Below the pieces are notes generated by a model, which was given only the letters and a program-made list of their open reading frames with translations, was not told the origin of the DNA and did not search any database. From contig DATDEX010000279.1 of NCBI GenBank assembly GCA_036522895.1, forward strand, positions 5,793 through 69,792: a DNA stretch of 64,000 nt, written 5' to 3'. Both the position numbers and the translations under genes were made by a program. Of the stretch, positions 26,124 to 63,710 are shown piece by piece. Position 1 is the stretch's first letter, and each line of letters starts with the position of its first letter. This DNA is from Candidatus Eiseniibacteriota bacterium. GTDB lineage: Bacteria; Eisenbacteria; RBG-16-71-46.

Positions 26124-26146
26124 CAAGAATACCCTACATAGGAACG

Positions 26147-42188: not shown

Positions 42189-44252
42189 CTAGTGCTTGAC
42201 GCCTCGGCCCTGAGTGCGCATCACATCGAGCGCGCGCTTGGCGTTCGCATCTCCCTGCTGAGCCGCTTTGCGGTACCAGAGAACGGCTGTGGCGTCGTCC
42301 TTCGCCACGCCCGAGCCATGTTCGTACGCCAGGCCGAGGTTGTACTGGGCACTCGCGTATCCCTGTTCGGCCGCCTTTCGCCACCAGAGCACGGCTGTGG
42401 CGTCATCCTCCACGACGCCATTGCCATTGGCGTACATCGCGCCGAGGTTGTTCTGGGCCCTCGCGACTCCCTGCTCGGCCGCCTTGCGGAACCAGAGAAC
42501 GGCCGTGCCGTCGTCTTTCGCCACGCCACTGCCATTCGCGTACATCGAGCCGAGATTGGCCTGGGCGTCCGCGTCTCCTTGTTCAGCCGCCTTGCGGTAC
42601 CAGAGAACGGCTGTGGAGTCATCCTTCGCCACGCCCTTGCCATTGGCGTACATCACGCCGAGGTTGTGCTGGGCGTCCGCGTCCCCCTGTTCAGCCGCTT
42701 TGCGGAACCAGAGAACGGCTGTGGCGTCATTCTTCGCCACGCCACTGCCATTCGCGTACATCGAGCCGAGGTTGCACTGGGCGCCCGCCTCTCCTTGTTC
42801 AGCCGCCTTGCGGTACCAGAGAACGGCTGTGGAGTCGTCCTTCCGCGTGCCACTGCCATCTTCGTACATCATGCCGAGGCTCTACTGGGCGCTCGCGAAT
42901 CCCTGTTCAGCCGCCTTTCGGTACCAGAGAACGGCTTTGGCGTCATCCTTCGCCACGCCCCTGCCATTGACGTACATCAAGCCGAGGTTGCACTGGGCGC
43001 TCGCGTCTCCTTGTTCAGCCGCCTTTCGATACCAGAGAACGGCTGTGGAGTCATCTTCCGCCACGCCCTTGCCATTCGAGTACATCGAGCCGAGGTTGTC
43101 CTGGGCGTCCGCGGCCCCCTGTTCAGCCGCCTTGCGGTACCAGAGGACGGCTGTGGCGTCATCCTTGTCCACGCCCCTGCCAGTGGCGTACATCAGCCCG
43201 AGGTTGTACTGGGCGTCCGCGTCTCCCTGTTCAGCCGCCTTTCGCAACCAGAGAACGCCTGTGGCGTCATCCTTAGCCACGCCCCTGCCGTCCTGATACA
43301 TCAATCCGAGGTTGACTTGCGCGCCCGTAAATCCCTGTTCGGCCGCCTTTCGGAACCAGAGAGCGGCTGTGGCGTCATCCCTAGCCACGCCCATGCCATG
43401 TTCGTACATCACGCCGAGGTTGTGCTGGGCGCTCGCGAATCCCTGTTCAGCAGCCTTTCGGTACCAGAGAACGGCTGTGGCGTCATCCCTCGCAACGCCC
43501 CTGCCATGGGCGTAGATCACGCCGAGGTTGTACTGGGCCCTCGCGTCTCCCTGCTCGGCCGCCTTGCGGTACCAGAGAACGGCTGTGGCGTCATCCTTCG
43601 CCACACCCCTGCCATCGGCGTACATCACGCCGAGGTTGTACTGGGCGTCCGCGGCTCCCTGTTCAGCCGCCTTGCGGTACCAGAGAACGGCTGTGGCGTC
43701 ATCTTTCTCCACGCCCCTGCCATTGGCGTACATCAAGCCGAGGTTGTCCTGGGCAAGCGCAAGTCCCTGTTCGGTCGCCTTTCGGTACCAGAGAACGGCT
43801 GTGGCGTCATCCCTCGCCACGCCTCTGCCGTTGGCATACATCAAGCCGAGGTTGGACTGGGCGAGCGCAAATCCCTGTTCGGCCGCCTTTCGGTACCAGA
43901 GAACGGCAGTCGAGTCATCCTTCGCCACGCCCCTGCCATGGGCGTACATGATGCCCAGGTTGTACTGGGCCCTCGCGTCTCCCTGCTCGGCCGCCTTTCG
44001 CAACCAGACAGCGGCTGTGGCGTCATCTTTCTCCACGCCCCTGCCATCGCCGTACATCACGCCGAGGTTGTACTGGGCCTGCGCGTCCCCATGCTCGGCC
44101 AATGGGCGCAATAGCCGGAGTGCCGTAGAGTAGTCACCACGGTTCGCAGCGGCGACGCCGTCTTCCAGCGGTCCAGCGTTCGCGTTTCCGGATGTCAGCA
44201 AGAACAACAGAATGAAGGCGAGCAGACGCCTCATGCGGCCGAATGCAGGCAT
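42189..44252 (-). pseudogene. Sel1-like repeat (SLR) protein gene interrupted by a single in-frame TAG
   Basis: Two minus-strand ORFs (42882..44372 and 42189..42872) are in the same frame and are separated only by a TAG where every other repeat has TAC (Tyr of AQYNLG). Intact, it would encode about 19 Sel1 repeats (GxxYxxGxGVxKDxxxAxxWYRKAAEQG) after a signal peptide (MRRLLAFILLFLLTSGNANA). Confidence 0.6.
42192..44120 (-). repeat. tandem array of about 19 near-identical 108-bp coding repeats (Sel1 units)
   Basis: A 108-nt unit recurs ('...ggtaccagagaacggctgtggcgtcatccttcgccacgcc...ggcgtacatc...gccgaggttgtactgggc...'). Copies differ at only a few positions. Confidence 0.8.
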
Positions 44253-44671
44253 CGACGTTCCTCCTTGCTTAGGCCTCGTCTCTCTTTGCGGTGGCGCGAG
44301 CCGCCGAACCCTGACATTGTCGCATGAGAACATTGGCAGTGTCCCGTGACCTGCTCCCCAACTCGGAAACAAACGCAGTCAGCATCCTGTCGAGTTGAGT
44401 GCGAAGTGCGTTCCTGATGAGAGCGGCCCGGGATCGGCTTCGCAAGATGCGCGTGCAGCCCAGATCTCGTGCGACCGCGACTCCTAGGTCAAGGTTCCGG
44501 AGTGTGCCGCTCCTTCGATGGCGGCCTCACCCGGACGGCGGCCCCGAGGCAGCCAGCGGACCCTTACATCCCGGCCCTCACCGCCAGCGACACGCCACTG
44601 TTGGCCGGGACCAATGACGGCGGGGTGTTCCGTTCAAGCGATGGCGGCCTCAGATCGCCTGACCTCAGCGC

Positions 44672-46210
44672 TCAGAAGCGAAGGGTGCGGAGATGACCGG
44701 AGCGCCGAGGGGGCCGTTGGAATCCTTCTTGTGCGATCCCCAGCTTATCTGCCAAGCGACTCTTGTAGACCACACTCAATTCTTCCTCAATCTGTTCAAC
44801 TTCGGGGATCAGCGCCGATGCCGGCTTGGAAGGCCGGACGTTCATCTCCGCGGAGGCGAGTCTGTCCATCCGCGGTCCTAGTGCATCCAAGCGCGCAGCT
44901 AAGGGCGGGTGCGAATCCGTGGGATGCGCGAGTTGTGTGTCGGCAATCCCCTTCAACCAATCTCTTGCGGGCAGCTCGGCGACGAGGAGCGCAAAACTCT
45001 TACTGACGTTGACCAAGCCGGTGCCATCGCCCTCGCGCAAGACGCTCGCAACACTGTCCTCAAGCTCTCCCCGGCGAGCCGAGAACGCGTGGACCTTCGC
45101 GAGGGCCGAAGCCATGCATAAGTTGTTCGTGACGCTCGCCCCCGCCGCATCAGCGGCCAGTTCGCGATCACGGCTAAGCCGACGCTCCGCGACTGCAAAA
45201 CATTCAAGGTAGTAGCTCAGGATGCCGAGCGCGGGCAGGAGCGGCAGGAGCATGGCCCCGCTGCCCGCGCTGCTCTGTATCGCGGCAATCGATGATGTGG
45301 TACCTCGATATATCGGATAGAAACGTTGGCTGAACTTGGTGTCGTTTCCTTTAAAGTGACCCAGTTCGTGGCCAAGGATTGCTGCGAACTCGTCAACGTC
45401 CAGAATTCTGCACAGCGGAAGGGAACAGTACAGCGTACGTCCACCGAGCGATTCTCCAATGCAATGGACGTCGGCCTCAGTCACGAAGAAGTTTCCGTCT
45501 AGCCCCGCGACGAGGTGGTCAGGGACACACGCGCCCAGGGTCTTGGCGACAGCCTCCACGCGTGCCCACAGGGCCGGCGCAGTATTTCTACCAATGCTCC
45601 TCCCTAGAACCTCATGTTCTGCCCTCTTCACCACCGCCCACATCACGCCCGCGATCTTGAAGGCCCCCAGCCCCGCTCCAACTGCTATTGCCGCGATGAC
45701 TCCGGTAAGCACGCTGCCGAAGAACACGACACCACCATAGTAGATGGCCACCACGGCAATGCTCGCATGGACGAGGACCAACACGACCACGCATATCGCC
45801 GTCCCGTACATCCCAGGCAAGAACACTTCGACCAGAAGGTCGCGACTGCCCTTTGCGAGGACCCCTGCCAATCCAATCCCGCAGATGAGCGCGATTCCCG
45901 CGAGGGCAGCGGCCACAGAGGTGCCAAACATGAGCTTCAAGATCAAATTGGTACGGCAGACGCCTCTTGTAGCTCTGCTCGAGGTCTTGCAGAGGTGATC
46001 GAGCGTGGCGTCGGCAAGTTCTTCCTGAGAGGTTTCGGGACGCGCTTCGAGCGTCGCCTTCCGTACTTGAGCGTCATACCGGAGCCGAACACGCGCCGCG
46101 ACACCAGCGCCCAGAATCGGAACCGCGAGAAGCATTACGAGGAGCCATCGTCGCTTAATCAATACGACTCCAAGGCTTGCTGTCTGCAGCGGGGAGGAGC
46201 TCGACGGCAC
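44672..46210 (-). CDS. M48-family zinc metallopeptidase (HtpX-like), membrane-bound
   Basis: 512 aa with several TM helices followed by the HEXXH motif 'AILGHELGHF'. Confidence 0.7.
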   Translation of the reverse strand: MPSSSSPLQTASLGVVLIKRRWLLVMLLAVPILGAGVAARVRLRYDAQVRKATLEARPETSQEELADATLDHLCKTSSRATRGVCRTNLILKLMFGTSVAAALAGIALICGIGLAGVLAKGSRDLLVEVFLPGMYGTAICVVVLVLVHASIAVVAIYYGGVVFFGSVLTGVIAAIAVGAGLGAFKIAGVMWAVVKRAEHEVLGRSIGRNTAPALWARVEAVAKTLGACVPDHLVAGLDGNFFVTEADVHCIGESLGGRTLYCSLPLCRILDVDEFAAILGHELGHFKGNDTKFSQRFYPIYRGTTSSIAAIQSSAGSGAMLLPLLPALGILSYYLECFAVAERRLSRDRELAADAAGASVTNNLCMASALAKVHAFSARRGELEDSVASVLREGDGTGLVNVSKSFALLVAELPARDWLKGIADTQLAHPTDSHPPLAARLDALGPRMDRLASAEMNVRPSKPASALIPEVEQIEEELSVVYKSRLADKLGIAQEGFQRPPRRSGHLRTLRF

Positions 46211-50699: not shown

Positions 50700-51773
50700 T
50701 TGCCGATGCCTTCACCCGCACCCTCGACGTTCAAGCCGGTTTGGCTCATCCGAGCAGGGCTCCATGGCGAGGACGAGCACGACTCCTTGGCCTCGGGTCT
50801 AGGAATCATCGGGTTTCACAGCGTGCCCTCGCTCGAGGGCGTGAAAGGTGCGGACGAGGTACTGGCCAAGGTCGAACGGCAGAGCCCCGGGGACAAGGTC
50901 GCTCGCACACGGAACCGCGCCGCTCAACTTACCGCCTTCGTGCTCAAGATGGAGGTCGGTGACACCGTGGTCATGCCGCTCAAGTCCTCACGCTCCCAAA
51001 TCGCCTTTGGACGCATCGCGGGCCCGTACGCATACAAGAAGGTCGGTGATGCCCTCCGCCACGTTCGTCCGATTGAATGGGTGCGTCCCGACGTCCCTCG
51101 TTCCACATTGGCACAAGATCTTCTCTACTCGCTGGGCGCGTTCATGACGGTCTGCCAGGTCACCCGCAATGGCGCCGAGCGCCGGCTTGCCGCCGTGCTC
51201 CGGGGCGGCGTAGACCCGGGGCTGGGCGAGGGGCCCGACGCACACCGGTCTGAGCCGGTCGAGGAGGTCGGGGACGATCCCGCGTTGCTCAACGTCGCAG
51301 AGGCGGCAGAAGACCAAATCGTCTCGCGCATCCAAGCCAAGTTCCGTGAGCACGACCTTGCACGTCTGGTCGACGCCATTCTTCGAGCAGAGGACTACGA
51401 GACGGCCGTATCGCCTCCCGGGCCTGATGGTGGTGTCGATATCCTCGCCGGGCGTGGCGCCCTGGGTCTCGAGGGACAGCATCTCTGCGTGCAGGTGAAG
51501 TCTTCGATGGATCCTTCGGACGTGAAGGTTTTCCGTGAGCTGAAAGGAACCATGGATTCCTTCAAGGCGGACGTGGGCTTGCTCGTGTCGTGGGGCGGGT
51601 TCACTAGGGCGCTTCGACAGGAAGCGCGGCAGAGTTACTTCAAAGTGCGGCTGTGGGGGGCAGGCGAGCTATTGCAGGCGGTCTACCGGAACTACGACCG
51701 CTTGTCGGAGGAGATTCAAGCAGAGCTGCCGCTCAAGCGCGTGTGGGCACTGGTCGGGGAGGAGTTGGAGTAG
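50700..51773 (+). CDS. mrr: Mrr-like restriction endonuclease (Mrr_N + Mrr_cat, PD-(D/E)xK)
   Basis: 357 aa. The C-terminal block 'PGPDGGVDILAGRGALGLEGQHLCVQVKSS' is the Mrr catalytic-core signature (D...QxK). It lies first in the lower-GC island. Confidence 0.65.
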   Translation: MPMPSPAPSTFKPVWLIRAGLHGEDEHDSLASGLGIIGFHSVPSLEGVKGADEVLAKVERQSPGDKVARTRNRAAQLTAFVLKMEVGDTVVMPLKSSRSQIAFGRIAGPYAYKKVGDALRHVRPIEWVRPDVPRSTLAQDLLYSLGAFMTVCQVTRNGAERRLAAVLRGGVDPGLGEGPDAHRSEPVEEVGDDPALLNVAEAAEDQIVSRIQAKFREHDLARLVDAILRAEDYETAVSPPGPDGGVDILAGRGALGLEGQHLCVQVKSSMDPSDVKVFRELKGTMDSFKADVGLLVSWGGFTRALRQEARQSYFKVRLWGAGELLQAVYRNYDRLSEEIQAELPLKRVWALVGEELE

Positions 51774-51774
51774 C

Positions 51775-51921
51775 AAGGGCACGCCACGCGGCGGATGAGC
51801 GGTTGCTGGAGCCGAGCGGCGCGTTTGAGGCGCTGCAATAGATGCTCGGTCAGTCGTCCATCGTGAAGACTCAGCTCCACGCTTGGATCAGCGACGTCAT
51901 GGTGTGGCGAGAGGTGGAGTG
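51775..51921 (+). pseudogene. tyrosine-integrase 3' remnant
   Basis: '...GAFEALQ*MLGQSSIVKTQLHAWISDVMVWREVE' aligns to the intact integrase C-terminus 'AALQQMLGHSSIVTTQRCARISDDMVRRDVE'. It has an internal TAG and the catalytic position is lost. Confidence 0.4.
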
Positions 51922-52317
51922 ATTGGAGATGGGGGCGAGCTAGTTCCAGTCCGTTGCATGGGATCGGGGGGGCGTGGACTTCAAGATGGAGGGGGGACTC
52001 GTTCGGTGGCTGCTATGCCGAATCAATGTCACCGACGCGGGATCAGCTGGGCCCCGAGAAGCGGGTTCTGAGCTTCATGTTCTCGTTCGAGGAGCCGCTG
52101 AAACTCAAGACCTCGATTGATGACGCGGCGCTCGGGCTCGATCGCGTGAACGGGACTGGGGCAGGAGGGAAGCAGGCCGCCGTCAGGTTCAACATCCGTC
52201 TCGAGGACTTCCGGTTCCACTCCATGCAGGGGAAGCTGCTGGGCGGTACTGCCGGCAATCGCAGGAAGCCTCCCGAACCCGAAGAGGGTGAGTAAGGACC
52301 GCCAATCTGCAGCCAGC

Positions 52318-52416
52318 GTTGTAGCCAGTGCCCTCCGTCGAGCTTGCCCCCCCCGCAACTTCGTGTAAACACGCCGACGGAGAGGTGCGAGAGCGGGTGA
52401 ATCGGGCGGTCTCGAA
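52318..52416 (+). repeat. conserved ~100-bp module, copy 1 (downstream of integrase remnant)
   Basis: 'gttgtagccagtgccctccgtcg...cttcgtgtaaacacg...cGGAGAGGTGCGAGAGCGGGTGAATCGGGCGGTCTCGAA'. It is followed by hairpin 52488-52520 (gagccccatgggg/ccccgtggggctc). Confidence 0.6.
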
Positions 52417-52732
52417 GCGGGTCGCTAGCAGAAAACAATACCTTCGCAGCAGACCGTCGAAGGCATTGCGCACCAATAGAATCTCGAGAGCCCCATGGGG
52501 TTGCGACCCCGTGGGGCTCCCTGGCTTTCGGGCATGTACGGGCCGTGGCGGGCGGATTCGGGCGCTGAAACGGTAGCAATCCTGTAGCGGCAACCGGCCA
52601 AGGAATCAGCCGGTCTTGAAGCTGCCGGAGCCTATGGTCGACGAGCCACGTGCGCGGCGTCTGGGAGGATGCCGTTCGGGCCCAGCCATAAATACCTTGC
52701 AAGTACGGCGTAGGTACGCTATCTTTTGCGGC

Positions 52733-53287
52733 ATGACTAAGAAGCCAGTAGCTACGCAACGCGCCCTCCCGGCGAGGCTTGAGGAGCTTCGGGCGTGGGC
52801 TGGGGGAACTGAGCAGGAAATCAGCGAGCTGGTCGGCTCAATGGCGCCCCTTCAGGAACGACTCGAGGCGGCGCGTGAGCGGCTGGACCTCATCAGACGC
52901 CTGATCGGCTTGGCGGAACGAGATGCCTCAGGGCGCGCAGGGGAACAGCACCAGGTCGAGGGGCGCCGCCGAGACGCGAATCAGCCTGAAGTGGTCCTGT
53001 CGACGCCGCGGGCGGGGGGTGATGTGGAAGATCATATCGAGGGGATCCTCGAAGCCGCCGGCGAGCCGGTTCACATCCGCGATATCCGCCAAGCCCTGAT
53101 CGAGCGGGGGGTTCCACTGCCGGGGCGAGGCGACGAGGCAAATCTCATCGTACGCCTGCGCCGAGACGCAGGTCGCTTCACCCGCACAGGAAGAGGCAAG
53201 TACGCATTGTCAAAATGGGGATTGGCGGCTGTCGAACCGTCGAAGACACGAAGGGTAGTACGCAAGAAGAGCGGAGTCTCGAGATGA
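52733..53287 (+). CDS. HARE-HTH (winged-helix) domain protein with N-terminal coiled coil
   Basis: Start ATG 52733 (MTKKPVAT). The C-terminal block 'IEGILEAAGEPVHIRDIRQALIERGVPLPGRGDEANLIVRLRRDAGRFTRTGRGKYALSKWG' fits the HARE-HTH pattern found in restriction-system and RpoE-delta proteins. It is first in a 3-gene operon. Confidence 0.45.
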   Translation: MTKKPVATQRALPARLEELRAWAGGTEQEISELVGSMAPLQERLEAARERLDLIRRLIGLAERDASGRAGEQHQVEGRRRDANQPEVVLSTPRAGGDVEDHIEGILEAAGEPVHIRDIRQALIERGVPLPGRGDEANLIVRLRRDAGRFTRTGRGKYALSKWGLAAVEPSKTRRVVRKKSGVSR

Positions 53288-53886
53288 CGCCAGCTGAAGA
53301 GATCGCGAACTGGGAAATATTTCTATGGGTGCTACAAAGACTCGGGGGTTCGACTGGTCTGGTCGACGTCGAGACCGTATTTTACGACTGTTTCCAAGTG
53401 GCCCCGCAGCGATTCTCCTGGCGAACTCGAGCAGACCTGCCGGACTACAAGAAGTGCTCAAAGGCTCTCCGGGATGCAGAAGCCCGCAAGCCCAGGCTCC
53501 TCGTCAAGACTGGGGACAGTTTCAAGCGCCAGCTGACAGTGGAAGGGCAACAGTGGGTCGAGGCGAATCAGGGTCGCCTTCAGAGGCTGTTGGAGAGCGG
53601 TCGCGTCATTCAGGAGCCCAAGCATCGCCCGAGGGCACGCCACCTCGCTGAAGTGGAACGGAGCGCCGAGTTTCTGCAGTGGCAAACAGCGGGGGTCTTG
53701 CCGGATGAAAAATGGCGGGTCGCCGAGCTCCTTCTGTGTTCGCCCGACAGTGACCCAAGAATCTGGAGAGATCGCCTCGACGTGCTAAGGAGCGGCGCGT
53801 ATGCCGGCGGAAAGAGCGATGTCTTGAGGTTTCTCGAAGAGTTGGTCGAGGCACATCACACCTGGTTCGAGGGAGTTCGGGAATGA
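53284..53886 (+). CDS. hypothetical protein (operon partner, no recognisable domain)
   Basis: 200 aa from ATG 53284. It overlaps the upstream stop by 4 nt (ATGA) and the downstream start by 4 nt (ATGA). Confidence 0.4.
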   Translation: MTPAEEIANWEIFLWVLQRLGGSTGLVDVETVFYDCFQVAPQRFSWRTRADLPDYKKCSKALRDAEARKPRLLVKTGDSFKRQLTVEGQQWVEANQGRLQRLLESGRVIQEPKHRPRARHLAEVERSAEFLQWQTAGVLPDEKWRVAELLLCSPDSDPRIWRDRLDVLRSGAYAGGKSDVLRFLEELVEAHHTWFEGVRE

Positions 53887-56072
53887 AAGAGAAACGTGGC
53901 CAAGTCCACTATGGAGGGCGTGCATTTCACCAGGACGCCACCGAAGCCATGCGTGGCGACATCATCCGGGCCCTCATTGAAACAATAACGAACTCCGACG
54001 ATGCCTACGCAGACGCACACGGAAAGATTCGGGTTGAAGTCGAGCACCGGCGCGGCCCGTGGAGAGTTATCACGCGAGATCGCGCAAAGGGTATGCGCAG
54101 CGCCCGGATGGAGGAGGCGTTCGTTCATCTCGGCGGACGTACCTCTGGCTTTGAACGCGGCGAAAACGTGCGAGGCAATCTTGGCCGAGGGGCGAAGGAT
54201 CTCGCGGCTTTCGGAAACGTGGTCTTCGAGAGCATCTGTGAGAACAGGTATTCCAAGATGACGCTCGAGACCACTGGAGCCTACTGCCTAAGTCCAGAGA
54301 GAAGTGCGGTGGAAACGGATCGAGTTGGGCTCGGCATACCGAAGGGCAGCGGAACGGTCGTCACGATGAACGTGAGCCCTAACATTCGCTGCCCGCAGCA
54401 CGCCCGTCTCACAGAGAAGCTGAAGAAGCATTTTCAGCTTCGCGACATCCTCGCTGATTCGAGAAGAGAGGTTCAGCTTGTCGACTTAAATGACGACTCC
54501 TCTGTGACGCTTCATTCAGCGCACTCGGCCCTGCCCATCGTGTATTCGGACAAGCTCACAATCAAGGAATACCCCGAGGCTAGCGCCGTTGTCACAATCT
54601 GCCGCAATCCTGAGCGCTTTGACGAGCCCGCCTCTGATCCGTACCGACCAGGAGGGCTCTTGATCAAAGGACGCAGGGCGATTTACCAAAACACGTACTT
54701 TCGCTTCGAAAACAATCCGCATGCGGGCTGGTTCTCAGGCCGAGTCGAGTGTGTCTACATTGACAAGCTGGCAAGCGAATATGATGAGCGGCTGGAGTAT
54801 GGCTTGTCCCAAGATGAACGGAACCCAATACCGATTATCACAAGAAGGCGTGATGGGCTCCAAGAGACTCACCCATTCTTCAAATCGCTCGCAGCCGCGG
54901 TCGAGGGGCCCCTGGGAACGCTGATCGCTGAGGAAGAGCGCAAGTCTCGGGAGTCGGCGTCGCACGAAGGCACAAGAATGCGCCGAATGCTTGACACTCT
55001 GGGAAGGGACCTGGCGCGGCTCGTCGATGAGGATCTAAGGGAAATCGAGGAGGATGGCCTTGGCGGGGGACGAGATGGGGATGAGGGAGTTCCGGCAATC
55101 AGGTTGATTCCTGAACAAGCCGTGCTCTACATGGGCGAGAACAAGACGCTGACTGTCCAGGTTCGCGCGGACGTGGGGGCAGCGCGGGTAACGGCAGAGG
55201 TGGAACCCGGCGGGGTGGTGGAGCTCGTCGATGCTGAGGAGATACCACTATCCCCACACAGGCGAAGGCCGGGCGTTCTGAGCGGACAGGTGCATGTCCA
55301 GCCGCTATTGGAAGATGCTGAGACCCTTCTGACCGTCAAAGCGGCTGGTGTCTCCGCTGTCGCCTTGATTGAGGTGAGGCCGGAGAGGGAGGTGGTTGAG
55401 GTTCCGGTGGTGCCGCCCAAGTCCCTCCAGTTCGAGCGGGACAGTTGTCGCGTGACATGGACAAAGAAGAAGAGACTGCGCCTGATTGCGCCCGCAGAGG
55501 TTGTGGCAAGCGAGGGCAAAGAGGTGCAGGTCACGTCGTCCGATCCGGGTGTTGTAGTCATCAGACAACGCACGAGGCTTGAGCTCGATGAAGCAGTCGA
55601 GTACTACTGTGCCGAAGTAGCCGTGGAGGGGAGAACGCTCGGGGCGAAGGCGACCCTTCGAGCGGTCCTCAATGAGCTCGAGGCAACATGCAACGTTCTT
55701 GTCGCACGAGACGATGAGGGTCCCAACTTGATGATAAAGGTGGTCGACGAAGAGGCTGGCAACAATCGAGCAATCGTCGAGACCGATGGAAAAAGAACCG
55801 CAATCAAGATCATGGGCCGTCATCCAGCCCTGAAGCGGTACCGTGGCCCCGCACCCGACTTTCCTGGCGATGACCTCATCGCCACACAGTGCATGACCGC
55901 AGAGATAGTTGCCGGGGAGGCCGCGCGCATCGTTATGGAGCGCAAGTTCCCATTCGGGGCGGGTGCGGAGAATCTGGACGCGGCGCGGCTATACGTCGAG
56001 CATCACCGATACCTCACCAAATACCTTGCGCGGTGTCATCGAGCCCTGGTGCCCGACGCAAGCCTGAAGTAG
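53883..56072 (+). CDS. GHKL-superfamily ATPase (MORC/HSP90-like Bergerat fold) with long C-terminal extension
   Basis: 729 aa. The N-box 'IIRALIETITNSDDAYADA' matches E(L/I)IxN(A/S)xDA of MORC/HSP90/MutL. The G-box-like 'NLGRGAKDLAAFG' follows at the expected ~60-aa spacing. The C-terminal ~450 aa is unassigned (possible Ig-like beta domains). Confidence 0.5.
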   Translation: MKEKRGQVHYGGRAFHQDATEAMRGDIIRALIETITNSDDAYADAHGKIRVEVEHRRGPWRVITRDRAKGMRSARMEEAFVHLGGRTSGFERGENVRGNLGRGAKDLAAFGNVVFESICENRYSKMTLETTGAYCLSPERSAVETDRVGLGIPKGSGTVVTMNVSPNIRCPQHARLTEKLKKHFQLRDILADSRREVQLVDLNDDSSVTLHSAHSALPIVYSDKLTIKEYPEASAVVTICRNPERFDEPASDPYRPGGLLIKGRRAIYQNTYFRFENNPHAGWFSGRVECVYIDKLASEYDERLEYGLSQDERNPIPIITRRRDGLQETHPFFKSLAAAVEGPLGTLIAEEERKSRESASHEGTRMRRMLDTLGRDLARLVDEDLREIEEDGLGGGRDGDEGVPAIRLIPEQAVLYMGENKTLTVQVRADVGAARVTAEVEPGGVVELVDAEEIPLSPHRRRPGVLSGQVHVQPLLEDAETLLTVKAAGVSAVALIEVRPEREVVEVPVVPPKSLQFERDSCRVTWTKKKRLRLIAPAEVVASEGKEVQVTSSDPGVVVIRQRTRLELDEAVEYYCAEVAVEGRTLGAKATLRAVLNELEATCNVLVARDDEGPNLMIKVVDEEAGNNRAIVETDGKRTAIKIMGRHPALKRYRGPAPDFPGDDLIATQCMTAEIVAGEAARIVMERKFPFGAGAENLDAARLYVEHHRYLTKYLARCHRALVPDASLK

Positions 56073-56252: not shown

Positions 56253-57511
56253 CCCCTATTTCGTGAGACACCCGCTGACCGTTTCTGACGTCTGTTCGCG
56301 CCGGTATTCGAGCGGGCTCCGGTAGCCCAGCGCCGAGTGCGGCGCGTGTTGGTTGTAGTCCGTGATCCAGCCCGGGATCCGCTCCAGCACCCCCGCCGCC
56401 GAACTCCAGTCGGCCCCATCCGGGTGGTCCCGGCGCAGGGTGTTTTCGAGCGCCTCCGACATCACATTCGACTCTGGGCTCGCAACTGGAGTCGTGATCG
56501 GCGTCAGGCTCAGCTTCTCCGCCGCGATCACCGTTTCGAGCGAGGCGTAGATCCCTTCGTTGTCACCGAGGCATCGCACTGGCTCCGTCGGCTTCTCGTT
56601 CCCGAAGCGCGAGAACTCGGGCTGCCGTATCAGCCGGCGGTTGTCGGCGCCGTCGATCGGTCGGGCCTCCGCGACCACCGCGATCGCCTCCCGATCGCAA
56701 CAGTCGAGCGCGAACGCCAACTCGACGATCTCCCCGTTCCAGCACGCGATCGTCATCTTGTCGCTGCACCAGGCTGGTTCGAGCCCGGCATCGTCACCAC
56801 GCCACGATGCGGACGACCGTTCCGACGTCGCCGCCGCACGGCTAGGGCGAGCCCGGTCAGCCGCATCAGCCGCTGGATGCGCTTGCGGTTGTAGCCCGCC
56901 CCATATGCCCGATTGACCAGCACCGTGGCCCGCCGGTACCCGTAACTGCCCCGATCGCGCAGCACCGCCTTCAACTGGGCGTAGACTACGGCATCGTCAC
57001 GCCGATGGTAGCGTCGGGCGCGCGGTCCGCGCTCCCGCTACGCCGTCGCCCGGGCAATCCCGAGCACCCGGCTGATCCGTGCCAACGGCCGGCCGGTCAC
57101 CGCGCGGACACCCCGCAGAAGCGTGATATTTTTCTACCTCGTCACGCGCCGCGCGCAGGATCTCCGGGTCCACGGCCTTTTTCCCGATCAGACGCTCGAG
57201 CTCGCGGATCTTCTGCTGCGCCGCCCGCAGTTCGCTCGCCGGCACCACGTCCTCGTTGGCCGCGACCACGGTCTCGCCGCCCTGGGCGATATCAGGTGCT
57301 TCCGCCGCTGCAACAAGCTGCGCGAAATGCCAAGCTCCCGGCTCAACTCCGAGATCGTGACCTCGCCCCGCGCCAACCGGGCGACCTGCTCACGCTTGAA
57401 CTCCGGCGAGAACAACCGCCGCCCGTCCGAACCCCGTGGAACGCTCTCCATGACACCCTCCTCGGTACCCGGATGGTACCTCGTGAAGATGTCTCGCCGA
57501 ATCGGGGGTCA
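56252..57511 (-). mobile_element. IS3-family insertion sequence, degenerate (orfA/orfB fragmented)
   Basis: OrfA pieces 57451..57188 (RRLFSPEFKREQVARLARGEVTISELSRELGISRSLLQ) and 57269..56997 (ELRAAQQKIRELERLIGKKAVDPEIL). OrfB pieces 56974..56753 and 56756..56256 (rve core ...YNQHAPHSALGYRSPLEY). Imperfect terminal inverted repeats: left 'tgacccctatttcgtgagacaccc', right '...tgtctcgccgaatcgggggtca'. There are extra frameshifts beyond the programmed one. Confidence 0.6.
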
Positions 57512-57523
57512 GGGCAGGGTGTC

Positions 57524-57647
57524 GCTCTGGGCGTTGCAGCAGCTGCTCGGGCACTCCACCGGGGTCATGACGCAGCGCTACTCCCGACTCGGTGACGACG
57601 CAGTCCGCCTCGAGGCCGGGAGGGCCGTTTCAAGGGGCAGGTTGTAG
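57524..57647 (+). pseudogene. tyrosine-integrase 3' fragment (abuts IS3 right end)
   Basis: 'VSLWALQQLLGHSTGVMTQRYSRLGDDAVRLEAGR' matches an integrase C-terminus including the catalytic Tyr context (TQRY). The 5' portion is absent. Confidence 0.5.
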
Positions 57648-57754
57648 CAGAAGTTGTAGCAGCGCCCTCCGCGCGCGTTTGCGTGAACCCCATAAGTTCG
57701 TGTAAGAGCACGCGTGGAGAGGTGCGAGAGCGGTTGAATCGGGCGGTCTCGCAA
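57641..57754 (+). repeat. conserved ~100-bp module, copy 2
   Basis: 'gttgtagcagaagttgtagcagcgccctccgcgcg...gttcgtgtaagagcacg...tGGAGAGGTGCGAGAGCGGTTGAATCGGGCGGTCTCGCAA'. It is followed by hairpin 57824-57857. Confidence 0.6.
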
Positions 57755-57946
57755 TCACGAACGAATACAAACGATACAATTCCGATCTGCTACTAGATGG
57801 GGCGTCGCCAAGCGCTAAATGCAAGGGCCAGAGGGGGCTACAAACCCTTTCGGCCCTTTGCTATGGTGGGCGGTGGGAATCGCTGGGAGCAGGTTGGAGT
57901 GCGGATGCTGTAGCCGGATCTGTAGCCAACAAGGGTTTAGGCACGC

Positions 57947-59113
57947 TTGAACGGCGATGCACAGATGAACTCGTGGAGACATGCAATGGGTACGGTTTTC
58001 GGTCCGACGGTGTACATCCTTGGTGCCGGTGCTTCGGTGCACTCGGGCGCACCACTGCTGGGTGACTTCTTGGCGGCGTCAAGACATGTCTATCACTCCG
58101 GTACGCCAGAGACAGTTGCGCACTATCACGAGATGGCGGAGTTCTTCGGGCATCTCGACGGGATGCGGAGCGTCGCCTACTACGTCGATTCCGATTTTGA
58201 CAATCTGGAAGAGGTCTTCTCACTCTTGGAGATGGGGAAGCAACTGGGCGACAATCAGAGCGTCGATCAGATCGCGCGACTCAGGTGGTCAATCTACGAG
58301 ACCCTCGACGCGACGACGCGCGTCAGAATGAAAGAAGGCAAGCAGATTCCGGATTCCGTCTACATGGAGTTCGTAAACCAGTTCAAGAAGCTCAATGAAG
58401 AGCGTCGGACGCGGGCACGGACGCCAAGTTTGGGAACTGTCAGTGATACGATTGTGACCTTCAACTACGACGTCTTGCTCGACCACGCGCTTGAGGCGGG
58501 ACAGGTTCCGGTAACCTATGGACTATTGCCAGATCGGGAAGACGGCGTGCAACTGCTTAAGCTTCATGGGTCGCTGAACTGGGGTGTCTGCACGGACTGC
58601 AATGGGGCCCCTCAGATTGTGTCACCGAGTAGTGATGCGTGGATCGGGACGCCGAGACTCGACCCGTTACCCGGAGCGAACATTGAACTGCGGCTTGCAA
58701 CAAAGATCCTGCCCGGCACAAAGTGTCGGCAATGCGGGAGGACCGACAGGCTGGAGCCCGTCATGGTGCCTCCGACCTGGTCGAAGCTGATTGCCGGGTC
58801 GCCGTTGGTGCCGGTCTGGACGCACGCGGTGGAAGCTCTCAAGACGGCATATCAAGTCATTATTGTAGGTTACTCGATGCCGACGACGGATACGTTCCTT
58901 CGATATCTTTTTGCTCTAGGGCTCCGGGCGAATCCTTGGTTTAGCCGCGTTGTTGTCGTCAACCCTGACAAGTCGGCCGGCTTTCGCTCACGGTACGAGG
59001 CGGTCTTCGGCAGAGCGCTTGGCTCTCGCGGAAAGCTCATATTCGTGGATCAGGTGAACTTCGAGGACTTCGTTTCGAAGGGCGAAATGGGCAGGATAGG
59101 TCGAAACATGTAA
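57947..59113 (+). CDS. stand-alone SIR2-like (SIR2_2 family) domain protein with Zn-ribbon
   Basis: 388 aa with the motifs 'VYILGAGASV', 'TFNYDVLLDHAL' (catalytic Asn context), 'LKLHGSLNW' (catalytic His context) and 'VIIVGYSMPTTD'. A CxxC..CxxC pair (CTDCNG...CRQCG) is inserted in the domain. Confidence 0.65.
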   Translation: MNGDAQMNSWRHAMGTVFGPTVYILGAGASVHSGAPLLGDFLAASRHVYHSGTPETVAHYHEMAEFFGHLDGMRSVAYYVDSDFDNLEEVFSLLEMGKQLGDNQSVDQIARLRWSIYETLDATTRVRMKEGKQIPDSVYMEFVNQFKKLNEERRTRARTPSLGTVSDTIVTFNYDVLLDHALEAGQVPVTYGLLPDREDGVQLLKLHGSLNWGVCTDCNGAPQIVSPSSDAWIGTPRLDPLPGANIELRLATKILPGTKCRQCGRTDRLEPVMVPPTWSKLIAGSPLVPVWTHAVEALKTAYQVIIVGYSMPTTDTFLRYLFALGLRANPWFSRVVVVNPDKSAGFRSRYEAVFGRALGSRGKLIFVDQVNFEDFVSKGEMGRIGRNM

Positions 59114-59157: not shown

Positions 59158-59649
59158 CTAGGCCGACTTCCTCGAGTAAAGAACGCGTCCGTGTTTCGCG
59201 ACGAATGCTAGTGGAATCTTGGGGTTGTTGATGTCCTTCGCCCCGTCGCTGTGCCACTTCATCTCCCACTTGGTGTAGAAGGGTTCTAACTGTTCGGGGG
59301 AGACATGATAGACCGCCTCGAGCTCGATGCCATCGTAGACTGCGAAAACCCATGGCACCCGACGATACTTGGCTATGATCGTCGGGTTCATGTGGTGGTG
59401 CGTTGAGAAGCTGCGGGTCAGGTTGATGTTCACTGACTTCAGCTCGTACTCGACTCCGTCAGCATCCCGGGCGTCGTTGCCCTCGCGGCCGGGAATGCCA
59501 ACTAGCCCGGTGAGCAGAAGTACCTGAAGGATCTTGCCCCCGTTGTCCTGGAATACGTCTCCGATGCCATGCTTCGACGCAAGGGACTGAAAAGCCTGCA
59601 CGTAAGGCCAAAGGCGCTCTAGTTCCTTGAAGTCTGGATGCGGCTTCAA
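59158..59649 (-). CDS. type II restriction endonuclease, PvuII-like (PD-(D/E)xK)
   Basis: 163 aa. '[17 protein letters not shown]...[22 protein letters not shown]...STHHHMNP' corresponds closely, from memory of R.PvuII, to its catalytic D58/E68/K70 region and HHH motif. It lies next to a C protein and divergent from a beta-class methyltransferase, as in the pvuII operon. Confidence 0.7.
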
Positions 59650-59882
59650 CGCCCTGCACCCTCAAGCAACTCCCTTAGCGAGACGCGTAAGGCCCGGGCC
59701 AGACGCTCCATGTTGTCGATCGACACGTTTCGCTCAGCCCGTTCGACCGACCCCACGTAGGTGCGGTGGAGGCCCGCAAGCGCCGCTAAGTCCTCCTGGG
59801 AAAGCAAGCGGTCGTGGCGGATGCGCCGGAGGTTTGCTGCAAAGATTTCGCGTGCGCGGTGAGCGCGATCGTGGGCTACCAT
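59646..59882 (-). CDS. R-M controller (C) protein, XRE-family HTH (C.PvuII-like)
   Basis: 78 aa. '[48 protein letters not shown]' is a classic C-protein HTH. Its stop overlaps the endonuclease start (ATGA). Confidence 0.75.
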
Positions 59883-59953: not shown

Positions 59954-60970
59954 TTGGCCATGCGCAGCAAGGAACGTGAGCGGAGGCGGCGAGAGCCCGC
60001 GTACTTCACCGAGCTAGGGCAGGCGTATAGCGGTGATTCAATCGAGTTGCTTACCGAGCTCCCTGACGACTCGGTCAATCTCGTACTTACGAGTCCGCCC
60101 TTTGCGCTGCAAAGAAAGAAGGCGTACGGAAACAAGGACCAGTCCGAGTACATCGACTGGTTGGTTGAGTTTGCCCGGGTTGTGCATACAAAGCTTCGCC
60201 CCGATGGGAGTTTTGTTCTGGATCTCGGTGGGGCATACCAGAAGGGAGTTCCAGCAAGAAGCCTTTACAACTTTCGGGTGCCAATTCGCTTGTGCGATGA
60301 GTTGGGCTTCTTTTTGGCCGAGGACTTCTATTGGTTCAACCCGTCAAAGCTCCCCAGCCCCATTGAGTGGGTGAACAAGCGGAAGATCCGCGCGAAGGAT
60401 TCAGTCAATAACGTGTGGTGGTTTGGGAAGACAGAGTGGCCTAAGGCGGACGTGTCTAGGGTGCTCACAGAGTACAGCGATCGGATGAAGAAGCTGATCG
60501 CCGATCCGTCAGGATTCTACACGCCAAAGAAGCGCCCCTCTGGGCACGACATCAGTGGCCAGTTTGGACGCGACAACGGCGGAGCAATCCCGTCCAATCT
60601 CTTGTCAATCCCTAACTCGGAGTCGAATGGGCGCTACTTGGAAGGTTGCCGTGTAATGTCAATCGCTGGGCACCCGGCGAGATTCCCGGCGAAGCTGCCG
60701 GAGTTCTTCATCAAGTTCTTGACGGATCCGAACGACCTGGTTGTCGACATCTTCGCTGGGTCGAACACAACTGGAGCAGTTGCGGAGGCGCTGGGCCGAA
60801 GGTGGATTAGCTACGACCTTTCCCTTGAGTATCTGGCGGCGTCGACCTTCAGGTTTGCGAGCTCTGGGACTTCTGTGGAGCAGATGCAAGTAGTCCACGA
60901 TCGTGTGCTCAAGGGGAAGTCCGTGAACCTCGATGTGCTCGATCACGCCCCCCGGCTCTCCCTGGGGTAG
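59954..60970 (+). CDS. beta-class N4/N6 amino DNA methyltransferase (M.PvuII-like)
   Basis: 338 aa. Motif IV SPPF (aa about 47) precedes motif I 'DIFAGSNTTG' near the C-terminus (beta permutation). Its size and divergent arrangement match pvuIIM. The called start is TTG at 59954, with an alternative ATG at 59960 and a GAGGAGG SD upstream. Confidence 0.8.
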   Translation: MAMRSKERERRRREPAYFTELGQAYSGDSIELLTELPDDSVNLVLTSPPFALQRKKAYGNKDQSEYIDWLVEFARVVHTKLRPDGSFVLDLGGAYQKGVPARSLYNFRVPIRLCDELGFFLAEDFYWFNPSKLPSPIEWVNKRKIRAKDSVNNVWWFGKTEWPKADVSRVLTEYSDRMKKLIADPSGFYTPKKRPSGHDISGQFGRDNGGAIPSNLLSIPNSESNGRYLEGCRVMSIAGHPARFPAKLPEFFIKFLTDPNDLVVDIFAGSNTTGAVAEALGRRWISYDLSLEYLAASTFRFASSGTSVEQMQVVHDRVLKGKSVNLDVLDHAPRLSLG

Positions 60971-61186: not shown

Positions 61187-62215
61187 ATGGGAAGCCAGGC
61201 CTACGGGATGCGGCTGTATCGGTACGGGATTGAGCTCAGGGGCGACGGGAGGAGAAGGGAACGGCTACCAGGCGGGCACGTCGTGATCGTTCGGCAAGAG
61301 GGCAAGTCGTCGTTCCGTGGGAAGATTCGGGCGTGGTCAGAGGCGAGCGCGAAGCGGCTCGCCCTCATTGCGGCCAACGCGGAACTGTTCTTCGGCTCTC
61401 ATGTCACGCTGACCTACCGCGCCGCCCAGGAGTCGTGGGAGACCGCAGGCGATCGGAATCGCCGATTCGTCCGGCGGTGCAAGGCGGACCTGCATAGGTT
61501 CCTGAGGGCCCTGCGAGCTGAGCTCGGGGAATATCTGTGGGTCCGGGAGTTCCAGGAGCGGGGAGTGGTCCACTACCACGTGCTGGCCCAGCATGAGGTA
61601 CCCGAAGCGAGGGCTGCGGAGGCCTGGGCGCGTGCGTCGGGGCAGTTCGGCGACGAGGCAGTATTGCGGCACGGCGTGAAGGTCGACGCGATCCAAAGTC
61701 AAAGGGGGGCGAGGCACTACCTGGGGAAGTACATCGGGAAGGAAAAGCAGAAGGGGTTGCCCGCGGGCGTTGATGGTGCGGGGCGCTGGTGGGGTCGGTC
61801 GCGAGGCCTTCGGTTGGCGCTGCTGGAAGACATCGTGTGGCTCGATCGAGGCGACATGTTCAGGCGTCCGGCCCAACTTCGAATCGTTCGGGGCCTGCGC
61901 GGATACATACAGCGTCGGTTCCGACGACGGTACCGAGGCGCCGCGTTCCTCGATTTCGGCGGCGCGCTGTCAGCGAAGTTGGTTGAGCTGGCGGCGCGGT
62001 TGCGCGAGTTCTACGGATGGAGTCCCAGCTTGGTCGAGCGACTGGAGAGGAGCGGTTGGGAAGTGATTCAGGAAGGGACTGAGGATGGACATGCAGCGGC
62101 TAGTGTCGAGGATCAAGCAGCATCAGTTGGAGAAGAGGCAGAAGGAGTTGGAGCGGAGACAGGAAGCGATGGCAGAGGCGCTCAGCAAGCGAAGCTCTGG
62201 CCCGCGACCCGATAA
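61187..62215 (+). CDS. HUH-superfamily replication initiator (Rep, AICE/pSAM2 RepSA-like)
   Basis: 342 aa with HUH motif 'GVVHYHVLAQ' and catalytic Tyr motif 'RHYLGKYIGK'. Confidence 0.6.
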   Translation: MGSQAYGMRLYRYGIELRGDGRRRERLPGGHVVIVRQEGKSSFRGKIRAWSEASAKRLALIAANAELFFGSHVTLTYRAAQESWETAGDRNRRFVRRCKADLHRFLRALRAELGEYLWVREFQERGVVHYHVLAQHEVPEARAAEAWARASGQFGDEAVLRHGVKVDAIQSQRGARHYLGKYIGKEKQKGLPAGVDGAGRWWGRSRGLRLALLEDIVWLDRGDMFRRPAQLRIVRGLRGYIQRRFRRRYRGAAFLDFGGALSAKLVELAARLREFYGWSPSLVERLERSGWEVIQEGTEDGHAAASVEDQAASVGEEAEGVGAETGSDGRGAQQAKLWPATR

Positions 62216-62219
62216 TCGA

Positions 62220-62375
62220 ATGACGACGAAAGAAGCCGCGGAAATGCTGCGGGTCCACCCAAAGTCCGTGGGCCTGTGGCGCAAGCGCCGGAATCTACCT
62301 TCCAAGAAGAATGGTCGAAGCGTAGTGTTCATCCGTGGCGACGTCCTTCAGTGGCAGGCTCTGCAGGAGAGCTGA
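62220..62375 (+). CDS. excisionase/MerR-like small HTH DNA-binding protein (Xis)
   Basis: 51 aa (MTTKEAAEMLRVHPKSVGLWRKRRNLPSKKNGRSVVFIRGDVLQW). It lies between Rep and the integrase, and its stop overlaps the integrase start (TGATG). Confidence 0.5.
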   Translation: MTTKEAAEMLRVHPKSVGLWRKRRNLPSKKNGRSVVFIRGDVLQWQALQES

Positions 62376-63357
62376 TGCCGAAACTGCCGAGGGGGATGTT
62401 TCTGAGGAAGGGGCGCGGGTACTACACGCGCCGCTGGACGGACGGGAATGATCGCTGGCTCGCGTTGGGCCCGGACTTCGACGAGGCGTGCCGCAAGCTT
62501 CGGAATGCCGAGCGAAGCGAGGTGCCGGTGGTCCGGCTCACCCTGAAAGAGGCGGCTGCCAAGTGGCTCGAAACCTACGTGGCCAAGAATCGGGCGCCTA
62601 AACAACGGGTGAAGGCCGCTCAACGGGTGCGTGACTACTTCGAGCCGTTCATGGGTTACAAGCTGCTCTCGCGGGTCGACAAAGAAGACCTGCGGGCGAT
62701 GCGCCTATGGTTGAAGAGGCAAGAGAAGAAGCCGCTTTCGGTGCGCCACATCCTGGCCGACGTGAAGTGCTTCTTCCGATGGTGCGAGGACGCGAGCTGG
62801 CTGGACCGGGCCCCGATCCAACACCGGTTGCTTCCCAAGTCGCAGGAGCGCCCGCCGGATCGTCTGGACGATGCCGATGTGGAGCGCCTGTTGTCGGTGC
62901 CGGAGCCTTACGCATTCATCGTGCGGCTGGCATTGGGAACCGGACTTCGCTGGGGCGAGCTCGCGAGGCTCAACAGCAACGACCTGGAAGTGGCGCGTTC
63001 CGAGGGGGAAGTACGCAGGGCATCCTCGTGGTGCGTCACACCAAGTCGTGGCGAGTTCGCAGGATTCCGTTGCAACGAGCGCTCTACGATGAACTGCGGA
63101 TGCGGGTCGGTCGGTTTCTGCCGATCATCAATCCGTTGGGCTTCGCTCGCATGGTGCGACGGTATTCAGGCGTCGCGACGTTCCACGCGCATCAGCTACG
63201 GCACACATTCGCGTGCCGCTGGCTGGAACGCGGCGGCGGCCTCGCGGCGCTGCAACAAATGCTCGGCCACTCGTCCATCGTGACGACGCAGCGCTGTGCG
63301 CGAATCAGCGACGACATGGTGCGGCGGGACGTGGAGAGGTTGGAGGCGGTGAGGTGA
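62375..63357 (+). pseudogene. tyrosine recombinase/integrase, frameshifted and with catalytic Tyr replaced by Cys
   Basis: The N-terminal frame (ORF 62276..63283 from MPKLPRG) carries the core-binding domain. The frame switches at a GGGGG run about 63004-63011 to ORF 62707..63357, which carries 'HQLRHTFACRWLERGGGLAALQQMLGHSSIVTTQRCARISDD'. The HxxR is present, but the expected catalytic Y reads C. Confidence 0.65.
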
Positions 63358-63617: not shown

Positions 63618-63710
63618 CCAGTGACCCTCCGCCGGGTTGCGCGACGCCGCTAACTCGTGTAACTACACCGGCGGAGAGGTGCGAGAGTGGTTGAATCGGG
63701 CGGTCTCGAA
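63611..63710 (+). repeat. conserved ~100-bp module, copy 3 (downstream of integrase)
   Basis: 'tctgtagccagtgaccctccgccg...ctcgtgtaactacacc...gcGGAGAGGTGCGAGAGTGGTTGAATCGGGCGGTCTCGAA'. Confidence 0.6.

Follow-up and report, generated by a model that had tools for sequence, protein, structure and literature searches.

The window analysed here, a whole stretch of 64,000 nucleotides (nt) from contig DATDEX010000279.1 of a Candidatus Eiseniibacteriota bacterium, carries at 57947..59113 (+) an open reading frame (ORF) listed at 388 amino acids (aa), which Pfam SIR2_2, a family alignment, an AF2 model and Foldseek describe as a single-domain protein of the SIR2_2 type. This SIR2 gene lies beside a PvuII-type restriction-modification (R-M) system, on what reads as a small integrative element. 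Chemistry on nicotinamide adenine dinucleotide (NAD+) is to be expected of such a domain; what is unexpected is that it comes with no sensor and no partner, and that it has a zinc module in a SIR2_2 background.

The SIR2 gene and the class of its product

The ORF and every motif string that the first-pass annotation had quoted from it are present in the translation: VYILGAGASV at residues 22-31, TFNYDVLLDHAL at 171-182, LKLHGSLNW at 204-212 and VIIVGYSMPTTD at 304-315, together with CTDCNG (C215, C218) and CRQCG (C260, C263), which hold the only four cysteines of the protein. The listed TTG start is probably too early. Because homologues begin at about residue 14 in the family alignment, and because a Shine-Dalgarno-like GGAGA lies 6 nt upstream of the ATG at codon 14 (57975..57988, +), ATG 57986 is the likely start, which would give a protein of 375 aa. 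In public data the identical protein (P0001) is called at 326 aa, with a start downstream of the invariant GAGAS motif, and this call should thus be regarded as truncated.

Residue conservation was read from an alignment of 238 relatives, in which the residues assigned to the NAD pocket and to catalysis (G26, G28, S30, N173, D175 and H207) are invariant or nearly so. The NAD-binding GAGAS loop (residues 26-30; 58022..58036, +) keeps G26, A27, G28 and S30 in 233-234 of the 238 sequences. TFNYD (residues 171-175; 58457..58471, +), with the predicted catalytic Asn and Asp, is the counterpart of sirtuin TQN(I/V)D and aligns with the T-NYD of antiphage SIR2 structures (N173 in 237, Y174 in 238 and D175 in 237 of 238). 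Similarly, KLHGSLNW (residues 205-212; 58559..58582, +), which includes the predicted catalytic His207, aligns to KLHGSINW of 8w9l and to LHGS of the archaeal Sir2 4twi, with K205, H207 and G208 in 238/238. After the zinc module come the invariant strand and loop PPTWSK (residues 275-280; 58769..58786, +; P276 in 238/238, W278 in 231/238, K280 in 237/238) and GYSMPTTD (residues 308-315; 58868..58891, +). The latter is the counterpart of the sirtuin G(T/S)S adenosine-ribose motif, aligns to IGTS of CobB and AGTS of 4twi, and keeps S310 and D315 in 238/238.

The first-pass annotation called the protein SIR2_2-type, and this call was borne out. Pfam SIR2_2 (PF13289) matches residues 168-211 only, with 25.0 bits where the gathering threshold is 24.5, and the same model matches 28 of 28 aligned relatives (best 2.7e-7). 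Pfam SIR2 (PF02146) stays below its cutoff with 11.7 bits against 24 and no NCBIfam sirtuin/CobB model matches, so that the CobB-type deacetylase weighed at the outset is not what the searches returned. Weak PF02146 matches do occur in 20 of the 28 relatives, spanning the His-Zn-GxS region. Pfam AbiH (PF14253) leaves the query unmatched at E<=1 and matches 6 of the 28 relatives weakly (best 9.4e-4). Among defence models, PADLOC SIR2 and Aga_SIR2 give weak, partial matches (best 26 bits), and NCBIfam SIR2_antiphage gives 15 bits against a cutoff of 500.

The AF2 model, built from a 28-sequence alignment, is confident (pLDDT, the predicted local distance difference test, 87.4; predicted template-modelling score, pTM, 0.88). 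In it the entire chain forms one domain with a Rossmann core and a helical insert of ~125 aa (residues 38-165), and there is no fused SLOG, TIR, HerA or pAgo domain and no long tail, just as had been read from the translation. DSSP assigns seven candidate core strands to this predicted model (21-25, 168-171, 201-205, 269-273, 303-307, 334-339 and 364-368); at least seven Rossmann strands are given as the mark of SIR2_2/'sirim' proteins, and six as that of sirtuins. When the model was compared with the PDB using Foldseek, the SIR2 protein of SIR2-HerA/Nezha came first (8sub, 8w9l, 8j4u; E 1e-10, template-modelling (TM) score ~0.53, 16-18% identity), followed by canonical sirtuins at query-normalised TM scores of 0.36-0.42. 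Likewise, the family profile found 8w9l among PDB sequences at 2.3e-7, with NxEE, T-NYD and KLHGSxNW in common, and archaeal Sir2 only at E ~0.2. Judged from sequence and predicted fold, these Pfam, structural and profile matches make the protein a SIR2_2-type enzyme, not a CobB-type sirtuin, and place it outside the curated defence SIR2 families.

The zinc module and a family of lone SIR2 genes

What had first been described as an inserted Zn-ribbon is a real pair of CxxC motifs (C215-x2-C218 ... C260-x2-C263; 58589..58735, +), but the insertion site is not a novel one. By alignment, the pair is the zinc module of sirtuins in exactly its usual position, which falls between strands 3 and 4 of the AF2 model. 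HMMER aligned the family string KLHGSlNWarCkeC with LHGSLRVVRCTSC of Sir2-Af1 (4twi), with the catalytic His and the first CxxC in the sirtuin register, H-x7-C-x2-C. Against E. coli CobB, hhalign found HG, the first knuckle, the second CxxC, L-x-P-x-(I/V)-V and G(Y/T)S to be collinear, at a probability of 4% that is low because the template was a single sequence. The second knuckle runs into LxP as CxxC-x4-LxP in the SIR2 protein.

This module is the most variable segment of the family, with 0.89 bits per column compared with ~3 bits in the catalytic strands. Among the 238 relatives, the four positions hold Cys in 84% (and His in a further 7%), 89%, 47% and 86%; four Cys/His ligands are present in 46% of sequences, three Cys in 36% and none in 8%. 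Its length ranges from 37 to 66 aa and its median net charge is +1. The idea that it forms a nucleic-acid-binding ribbon was rejected, since neither this variability nor the absence of a basic charge bias points that way.

The Zn site, or Cys tetrad, is stated to be absent from SIR2_2/'sirim' proteins (bioRxiv 10.1101/2024.09.18.613514; PMC12700824), and one of these two sources proposes that the zinc module arose later, with a shift to deacetylation. The SIR2 protein departs from that description, with C215, C218, C260 and C263 all in sirtuin register.

The family is large. A word-indexed search returned 2,567 homologues, and a profile scan of 1.84 billion cluster representatives gave 14,232 matches at E<=1e-3 and 2,097 at E<=1e-30, from which we put its size at no fewer than 2,097 clusters at 50% identity. 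The best 150 cluster representatives are all 295-414 aa long with one matched stretch each, and by this measure the family is uniformly stand-alone. The suggestion that a compact lone SIR2 might be a new variant holds good, but it is no rarity, the family numbering in the thousands. In species genomes it is nevertheless rare and patchy, with 342 confirmed loci in 185,579 genomes, a figure to be read as a lower bound. Members were found in Nitrospirota, Omnitrophota, Chloroflexota, Acidobacteriota, Gemmatimonadota, Myxococcota, Proteobacteria, Leptospira, Planctomycetota, Bacillota, lineages of the candidate phyla radiation (CPR) and several archaeal lineages. A phage or plasmid origin of the family was considered and rejected on the counts returned (0 phage records, 6 plasmid records and 15 weak matches in IMG/VR).

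Homologues that are always fused, or always paired with a second component, were likewise not what we found. The contexts examined come mostly from metagenome bins. All-versus-all BLASTP of the ORFs within 5 kb of the gene at 86 non-redundant loci gave no cluster present in more than 4 loci, and when the 148 nearest neighbours, taken from 37 loci, were scanned with Pfam and PADLOC, no neighbour family recurred in more than 2-4 members, each Pfam family appearing at most twice. Among these 148 neighbours, PADLOC picked out only a handful of methyltransferases and a single type IIG enzyme, along with some matches to mad2/mad8. In addition, the flanks were searched using blastn and tblastx for a conserved leader, riboswitch or small ORF, and these searches returned nothing beyond matches at coding starts, synteny of closely related genomes and noise due to high GC. 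A conserved partner, small ORF or non-coding element beside the gene was rejected after these scans.

Some individual arrangements are worth recording. In some genomes two genes of the family lie close together, either in tandem 84 nt apart (L012, 1931-4348) or further apart (L014, 4621-5751 and 10547-11572; L057, 5059-6162 and 7983-9200), which is reminiscent of the pairing of FAM118A/B. A NUDIX hydrolase lies directly upstream of the homologue on a Cohnella herbarum plasmid, with RelE/ParE toxin genes downstream (L106, 7379-9083), and a LigT/2H phosphoesterase directly upstream of another (L007, 5765-8212); this pattern of upstream ADP-ribose-related genes is not conserved across loci.

The integrative element and other genomic contexts

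The neighbours of the SIR2 gene are as they were first described, a convergent PvuII-type endonuclease and the rest of an R-M system. The system is complete, with controller, endonuclease and methyltransferase (C/R/M), and lies on a mobile island. The endonuclease gene (59158..59649, -; Pfam Endonuc-PvuII 5.7e-65, PADLOC REase_II 4.9e-68) faces the SIR2 gene across a 44-nt gap, and beyond it lie the genes for the controller, a helix-turn-helix (HTH) protein (59646..59882, -; PADLOC Control_protein 8.8e-26, Pfam HTH_3), and for an N4/N6 DNA methyltransferase (59954..60970, +; PADLOC MTase_II PDLC03323 4.2e-171, Pfam N6_N4_Mtase 1.2e-40). The element backbone follows. It consists of a Rep protein (61187..62215, +; Pfam REP_ORF2-G2P 2.2e-12), an excisionase-type HTH protein, Xis (62223..62375, +; Pfam HTH_17 3.2e-10), which is conserved in related elements, and a tyrosine integrase, Int (62276..63357, +; Phage_integrase), which is split over two frames, its N-terminal part in ORF 62276-63283 and its C-terminal part in ORF 62707-63357. 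The integrase ORF is intact in related elements (335-361 aa). Here the enzyme is probably inactive, and the element probably immobilised. The expected catalytic Tyr of this integrase reads Cys (TTQRCARI), and an integrase fragment at 57123-57647 reads MTQRYSRL.

The window holds three copies of a 36-nt core (52379-52414, 57716-57751 and 63673-63708; 0 expected by chance), each of them preceded by an integrase gene or integrase remnant. The core is a copy of the 5' half of tRNA-Ser(CGA). The left attachment (att) core of the element (57716..57751, +) aligns to positions 1-38 of E. coli serU, and similarity to the E. coli tRNA-Ser(CGA) stops in the anticodon loop; the right att core (63673..63708, +), which closes an element of ~6 kb, is a non-intact tRNA here. 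An earlier reading of the three repeats as a non-coding RNA (ncRNA) of unknown kind was replaced by this one on the strength of the serU alignment and of ARAGORN matches in related loci. As a side observation, the crossover lies in the anticodon loop and tRNA-Ser(CGA) elements carry the 5' half of the tRNA, the usual case being the 3' half. With at least three tandem units and no intact tRNA in the window, the array probably runs on past 64000.

A direct repeat, CTGTAGCC-N4-CTGTAGCC, lies at 57908..57927 (+), 20 nt before the listed SIR2 start and ~150 nt downstream of the 57716 core. Further copies, at 52307 and 63600, lie just upstream of the 52379 and 63673 cores. The repeat may be an arm-type site for the integrase, or an operator.

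The GC content falls from ~70% to 56-65% from ~50.5 kb onwards, and the SIR2 and R-M genes have 57-59% against ~70% in the host. Read in this way, 57.7-63.7 kb is one integrative element of ~6 kb with the order SIR2, R, C, M, Rep, Xis, Int, inserted in tRNA-Ser(CGA), and the SIR2 gene is its first cargo gene.

Scanning metagenomes with Rep recovered five related elements, in which Rep is 65-85% identical and most of which have Xis and Int homologues. The same core is present on each of their contigs and flanks the element on both sides in two (L114, L117). In two (L116, L117), an intact tRNA-Ser(CGA) gene begins with the integrase-proximal core according to ARAGORN (L116, 3479-3568; L117, core at 2242 and tRNA at 10614-10703). 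The SIR2 and R-M genes are absent from all five. In their place, L114 carries DUF3251 and unknown proteins, L117 carries Kelch-repeat proteins, and L118 (186-4196) carries a 1,336-aa nuclease-TPR-PIN protein. With the same backbone and att site and different cargo in the relatives, the SIR2 and R-M genes are to be seen as exchangeable cargo. In the 1,336-aa protein of L118, an N-terminal PD-(D/E)xK nuclease like that of CBASS effectors (1.9e-32) is combined with TPR repeats and a TPR-GreAB-C-PIN-type PIN domain.

In L109 (4511-12021), a homologue of 42% identity sits between HmaA (SNF2 helicase-nuclease, 8e-194) and HmaB (DUF1156 adenine methylase, 4e-133), separated from one of its two neighbours by 1 nt and overlapping the other by 8 nt. 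In L079 (4455-16567), a homologue of 24% identity follows HmaC/DUF499 and precedes a 331-aa ORF, HmaB and a PLD-SNF2 helicase. These are unrelated metagenome contigs, each with a divergent SIR2 homologue inside an Hma operon. Of the L109-type helicase, L110 keeps only a C-terminal fragment. In L060 a DrmD/SNF2 fragment, at the end of the contig, comes after the SIR2-family gene; in L108 the SIR2-family gene lies ~7 kb upstream of an HTH_17-integrase pair, and in L031 an integrase lies 28 nt upstream of it. The 331-aa ORF of L079 has a weak RT_III-A match. Adjacency to NOV_C/DUF3883 was considered as a recurrent feature and rejected, being confined to L109 and its degraded relative L110.

Embedding within Hma operons suggests a role in defence by association. 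It is no sign of a function shared with Hma, given that ~66.5% of hma loci have inserted genes (those identified in Halomonas being the defence systems Septu, PARIS and Ppl) and have been called a 'defence hotspot' (PMC11232893). The link to defence islands proposed in the first-pass annotation is real for the minority of loci that are embedded in Hma operons or linked to integrases, and does not extend to the majority, whose neighbours are mostly housekeeping genes; the defence or mobile contexts (the window, L109, L079, L108 and L031) are counts without a matched control.

Several other features of the window should be noted. Within the same tandem island as the R-M genes, an Mrr_cat-domain protein at 50700-51773 (+) matches the PADLOC candidate system PDC-S02 over nearly its full length (2.4e-126), and is followed by an integrase remnant (51800-51928) that is 77% identical to 63217-63345. 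The neighbouring island unit holds an overlapping three-gene operon at 52616-56072 (+), for which PADLOC matched none of its systems; its members are a protein with a weak HARE-HTH match (52616-53287), a protein of 223 aa without matches (53215-53886) and a 729-aa GHKL/HATPase_c_3 protein (53883-56072). This operon may be an undescribed defence candidate. Between the GHKL operon and the integrase fragment there are remnants of an IS3-family transposase (56256-57269, -; rve_3 5e-11), which indicate decay of this middle unit. Other stretches of low GC, at 24000-27000 (to 55%) and 42000-46000 (to 60%) against ~70%, may be further horizontally acquired islands. Rfam found nothing in the window at gathering score. 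A CRISPR-DR20 match inside Rep (61338-61374, +; 26.7 bits against 42, E 0.057, no repeat array) was dismissed as chance, and a promoter and terminator scan around the SIR2 gene was uninformative in this high-GC genome.

Interpretation and comparison with known systems

We consider that the best explanation for the SIR2 gene, with about an even chance of being correct, is that it encodes a self-contained defence enzyme that depletes NAD+ independently of the R-M system. The enzyme would bind NAD+ and cleave the nicotinamide-ribosyl bond, as predicted from the GAGAS loop, N173 and D175, H207 and the GYS motif. It would act in abortive infection or as a second line of defence: inactive at rest, it would be turned on by an infection-linked cue, and the ensuing loss of NAD+ would halt growth of the infected cell. 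Activation would probably proceed by homo-oligomerisation, by analogy with characterised SIR2_2 proteins, and either the hypervariable zinc module or the ~125-aa helical insert could offer the sensor surface. This explanation is preferred because the NAD pocket and the Asn, Asp and His residues are invariant, because the nearest relatives are antiphage NAD+-cleaving enzymes (NADases), and because the gene is rare, patchy and horizontally mobile, carried as cargo on elements and inside defence hotspots.

It is important to set out what weighs against it. None of the PADLOC or NCBIfam defence models matches at family level (best 26 bits; 15 against 500). The family is present in 6 of 72,556 plasmid records and in 0 records of sequenced phages. 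Housekeeping genes (polA, alaS, recA, Hsp70, gltB) make up most of the 148 nearest neighbours, of which only a few are R-M-like, and the cargo slot of related elements also takes non-defence genes such as those for Kelch-repeat proteins. Furthermore, to have kept the zinc module is the hallmark of sirtuins that deacylate proteins, and the module has been tied to deacetylation (PMC12700824).

A bolder form of the self-contained defence enzyme can be put forward tentatively, as a reading that we think more likely wrong than right. The family would then be a self-sufficient group of SIR2 immune proteins lacking a separate sensor domain, in which the hypervariable zinc module is the infection sensor. 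As SIR2_2-clade enzymes already equipped with the canonical Cys4 module, they would form an evolutionary bridge between SIR2_2 NADases and zinc sirtuins. If true, such a bridge would contradict the published absence of the zinc module from SIR2_2/'sirim' proteins and its origin with deacetylation.

Alternatively, the SIR2 gene might encode a sirtuin-like protein-modifying enzyme (a lysine deacylase or protein ADP-ribosyltransferase) with a regulatory or stress role, whose zinc module holds the protein substrate. We regard this as unlikely. Both Cys4 knuckles are in canonical register, with L-x-P-x-(I/V)-V coming after them just as it does in CobB and archaeal Sir2, the weak PF02146 matches in 20 of 28 members lie over the very region in question, many homologues are single genes amid housekeeping neighbours, and the zinc module has been linked to deacetylation in print (PMC12700824). 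However, sequence and structure are nearer to antiphage SIR2_2 proteins than to sirtuins, and the model predicts seven candidate core strands rather than six. The family is patchy and rare instead of broadly conserved, it is carried on mobile elements and within Hma operons, and its zinc module is its least conserved part; the loss of one Cys in 36% of members and of all four in 8% would be odd for a substrate-binding module under purifying selection.

It is improbable, in our view, that the SIR2 protein is an add-on of methylation-based restriction (PvuII-type here, Hma elsewhere), that is, an NADase effector triggered by the activity or failure of restriction and serving as a suicide back-up. 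What invites this idea is that the SIR2 gene adjoins a complete C/R/M set of equally low GC in one ~6-kb element, that two divergent homologues are embedded operon-like in Hma (helicase, methylase, ATPase) loci, that the L060 gene is followed by a DrmD/SNF2 fragment, and that a few methyltransferase or type IIG genes figure among the 148 neighbours. Nevertheless, the SIR2 gene is convergent with the endonuclease gene, which leaves no co-transcription; the putative partners differ in kind (type IIP against Hma); R-M neighbours are missing from the great majority of the 86 loci; and insertions of unrelated defence genes are known from Hma loci (PMC11232893). The co-operation with the PvuII-type system suggested in the first-pass annotation is therefore not conserved, related elements lacking both the SIR2 and the R-M genes.

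R-M systems can themselves act as addiction modules. A role as an addiction or stabilisation toxin, or as selfish cargo that benefits the element rather than the host, is very improbable: the SIR2 gene does occupy the first cargo position beside attL of a small Rep-Xis-Int element and has an R-M system alongside, but no conserved antitoxin-like partner emerged from the 86 loci and flank searches, most homologues lie outside recognisable mobile elements, and the integrase is broken here while the SIR2 ORF is intact.

NADases with SIR2 domains act as central effectors in bacterial immunity, and FAM118A/B are human relatives of theirs. To our knowledge, no SIR2 NADase has been characterised that lacks both a sensor domain of its own and a partner protein on which it depends. 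With several thousand members that consist of the SIR2 domain alone, the family poses the question of how a lethal NADase is held off and how it is switched on, in proteins small enough for easy study. That the zinc module has been kept is relevant, too, to how sirtuins arose: if the family branches within SIR2_2, the scenario of the module as a later invention needs revision, and if the protein proves to be a deacylase, it would be a new class of sirtuin spread by mobile elements.

We found no description of the family among the curated models, solved structures and literature searched. It is a stand-alone SIR2_2-type family with a zinc module in sirtuin register, and it does not fall within SIR2-HerA, Thoeris, DSR, Avs5, SPARSA or AbiH, because the defining features of each were looked for and are lacking. 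ThsA, DSR1/DSR2, Avs5, the SPARSA SIR2, KomC and human FAM118B share with it the SIR2_2 Pfam family and the catalytic Asn and His, and may also share a seven-stranded sheet. Those SIR2_2/'sirim' NADases work by oligomerisation-controlled NAD+ processing (PMC12700824). They have sensor domains or partners, whereas the SIR2 protein has neither, and they are described as without the zinc module that is present in this family. More specifically, no SLOG domain, long C-terminal sensor, STAND NTPase or APAZ/pAgo of the kind known from Thoeris ThsA, DSR1-2, Avs5 and SPARSA is fused to or paired with the SIR2 protein; in the case of SPARSA, the Aga_SIR2 models match weakly and no pAgo lies nearby. The lactococcal AbiH, classed as SIRim-type (bioRxiv 10.1101/2024.09.18.613514), is similar in that it, too, comes from one gene (roughly 350 aa), has a SIR2-like fold and acts without a dedicated partner, but the query matches neither PF14253 nor PADLOC AbiH.

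With the zinc sirtuins (CobB, Sir2-Af1 4twi/1ici, Sir2Tm), the protein shares a collinear order of GAGxS, TxNxD, LHGS-x5-CxxC, CxxC-x(3-6)-LxP-x-(I/V)V and G(Y/T)S, with the Cys tetrad in identical register. It differs from them in its scores (PF02146 at 11.7 against 24 bits, PDB profile E ~0.2, hhalign 4% against CobB, TM 0.36-0.42), in a predicted helical insert of ~125 aa and an extra C-terminal strand in the model, and in a distribution that is patchy, not broadly conserved. From SIR2-HerA (GAO_19/Nezha; 8sub, 8w9l, 8j4u) it is set apart by an identity of 16-18% and PADLOC SIR2 matches that are partial at 26 bits, by the lack of HerA among the window genes scanned or as a recurrent neighbour at the 86 loci, and by a Cys4 module of ~50 aa after the catalytic His where the SIR2-HerA protein has a short Cys-free segment. 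SIR2-HerA is at the same time its best match in both structure and sequence, of similar size (~380-415 aa) and with NxEE, T-NYD and KLHGSxNW in common, and it is NAD+ cleavage of this kind that we would predict for the family.

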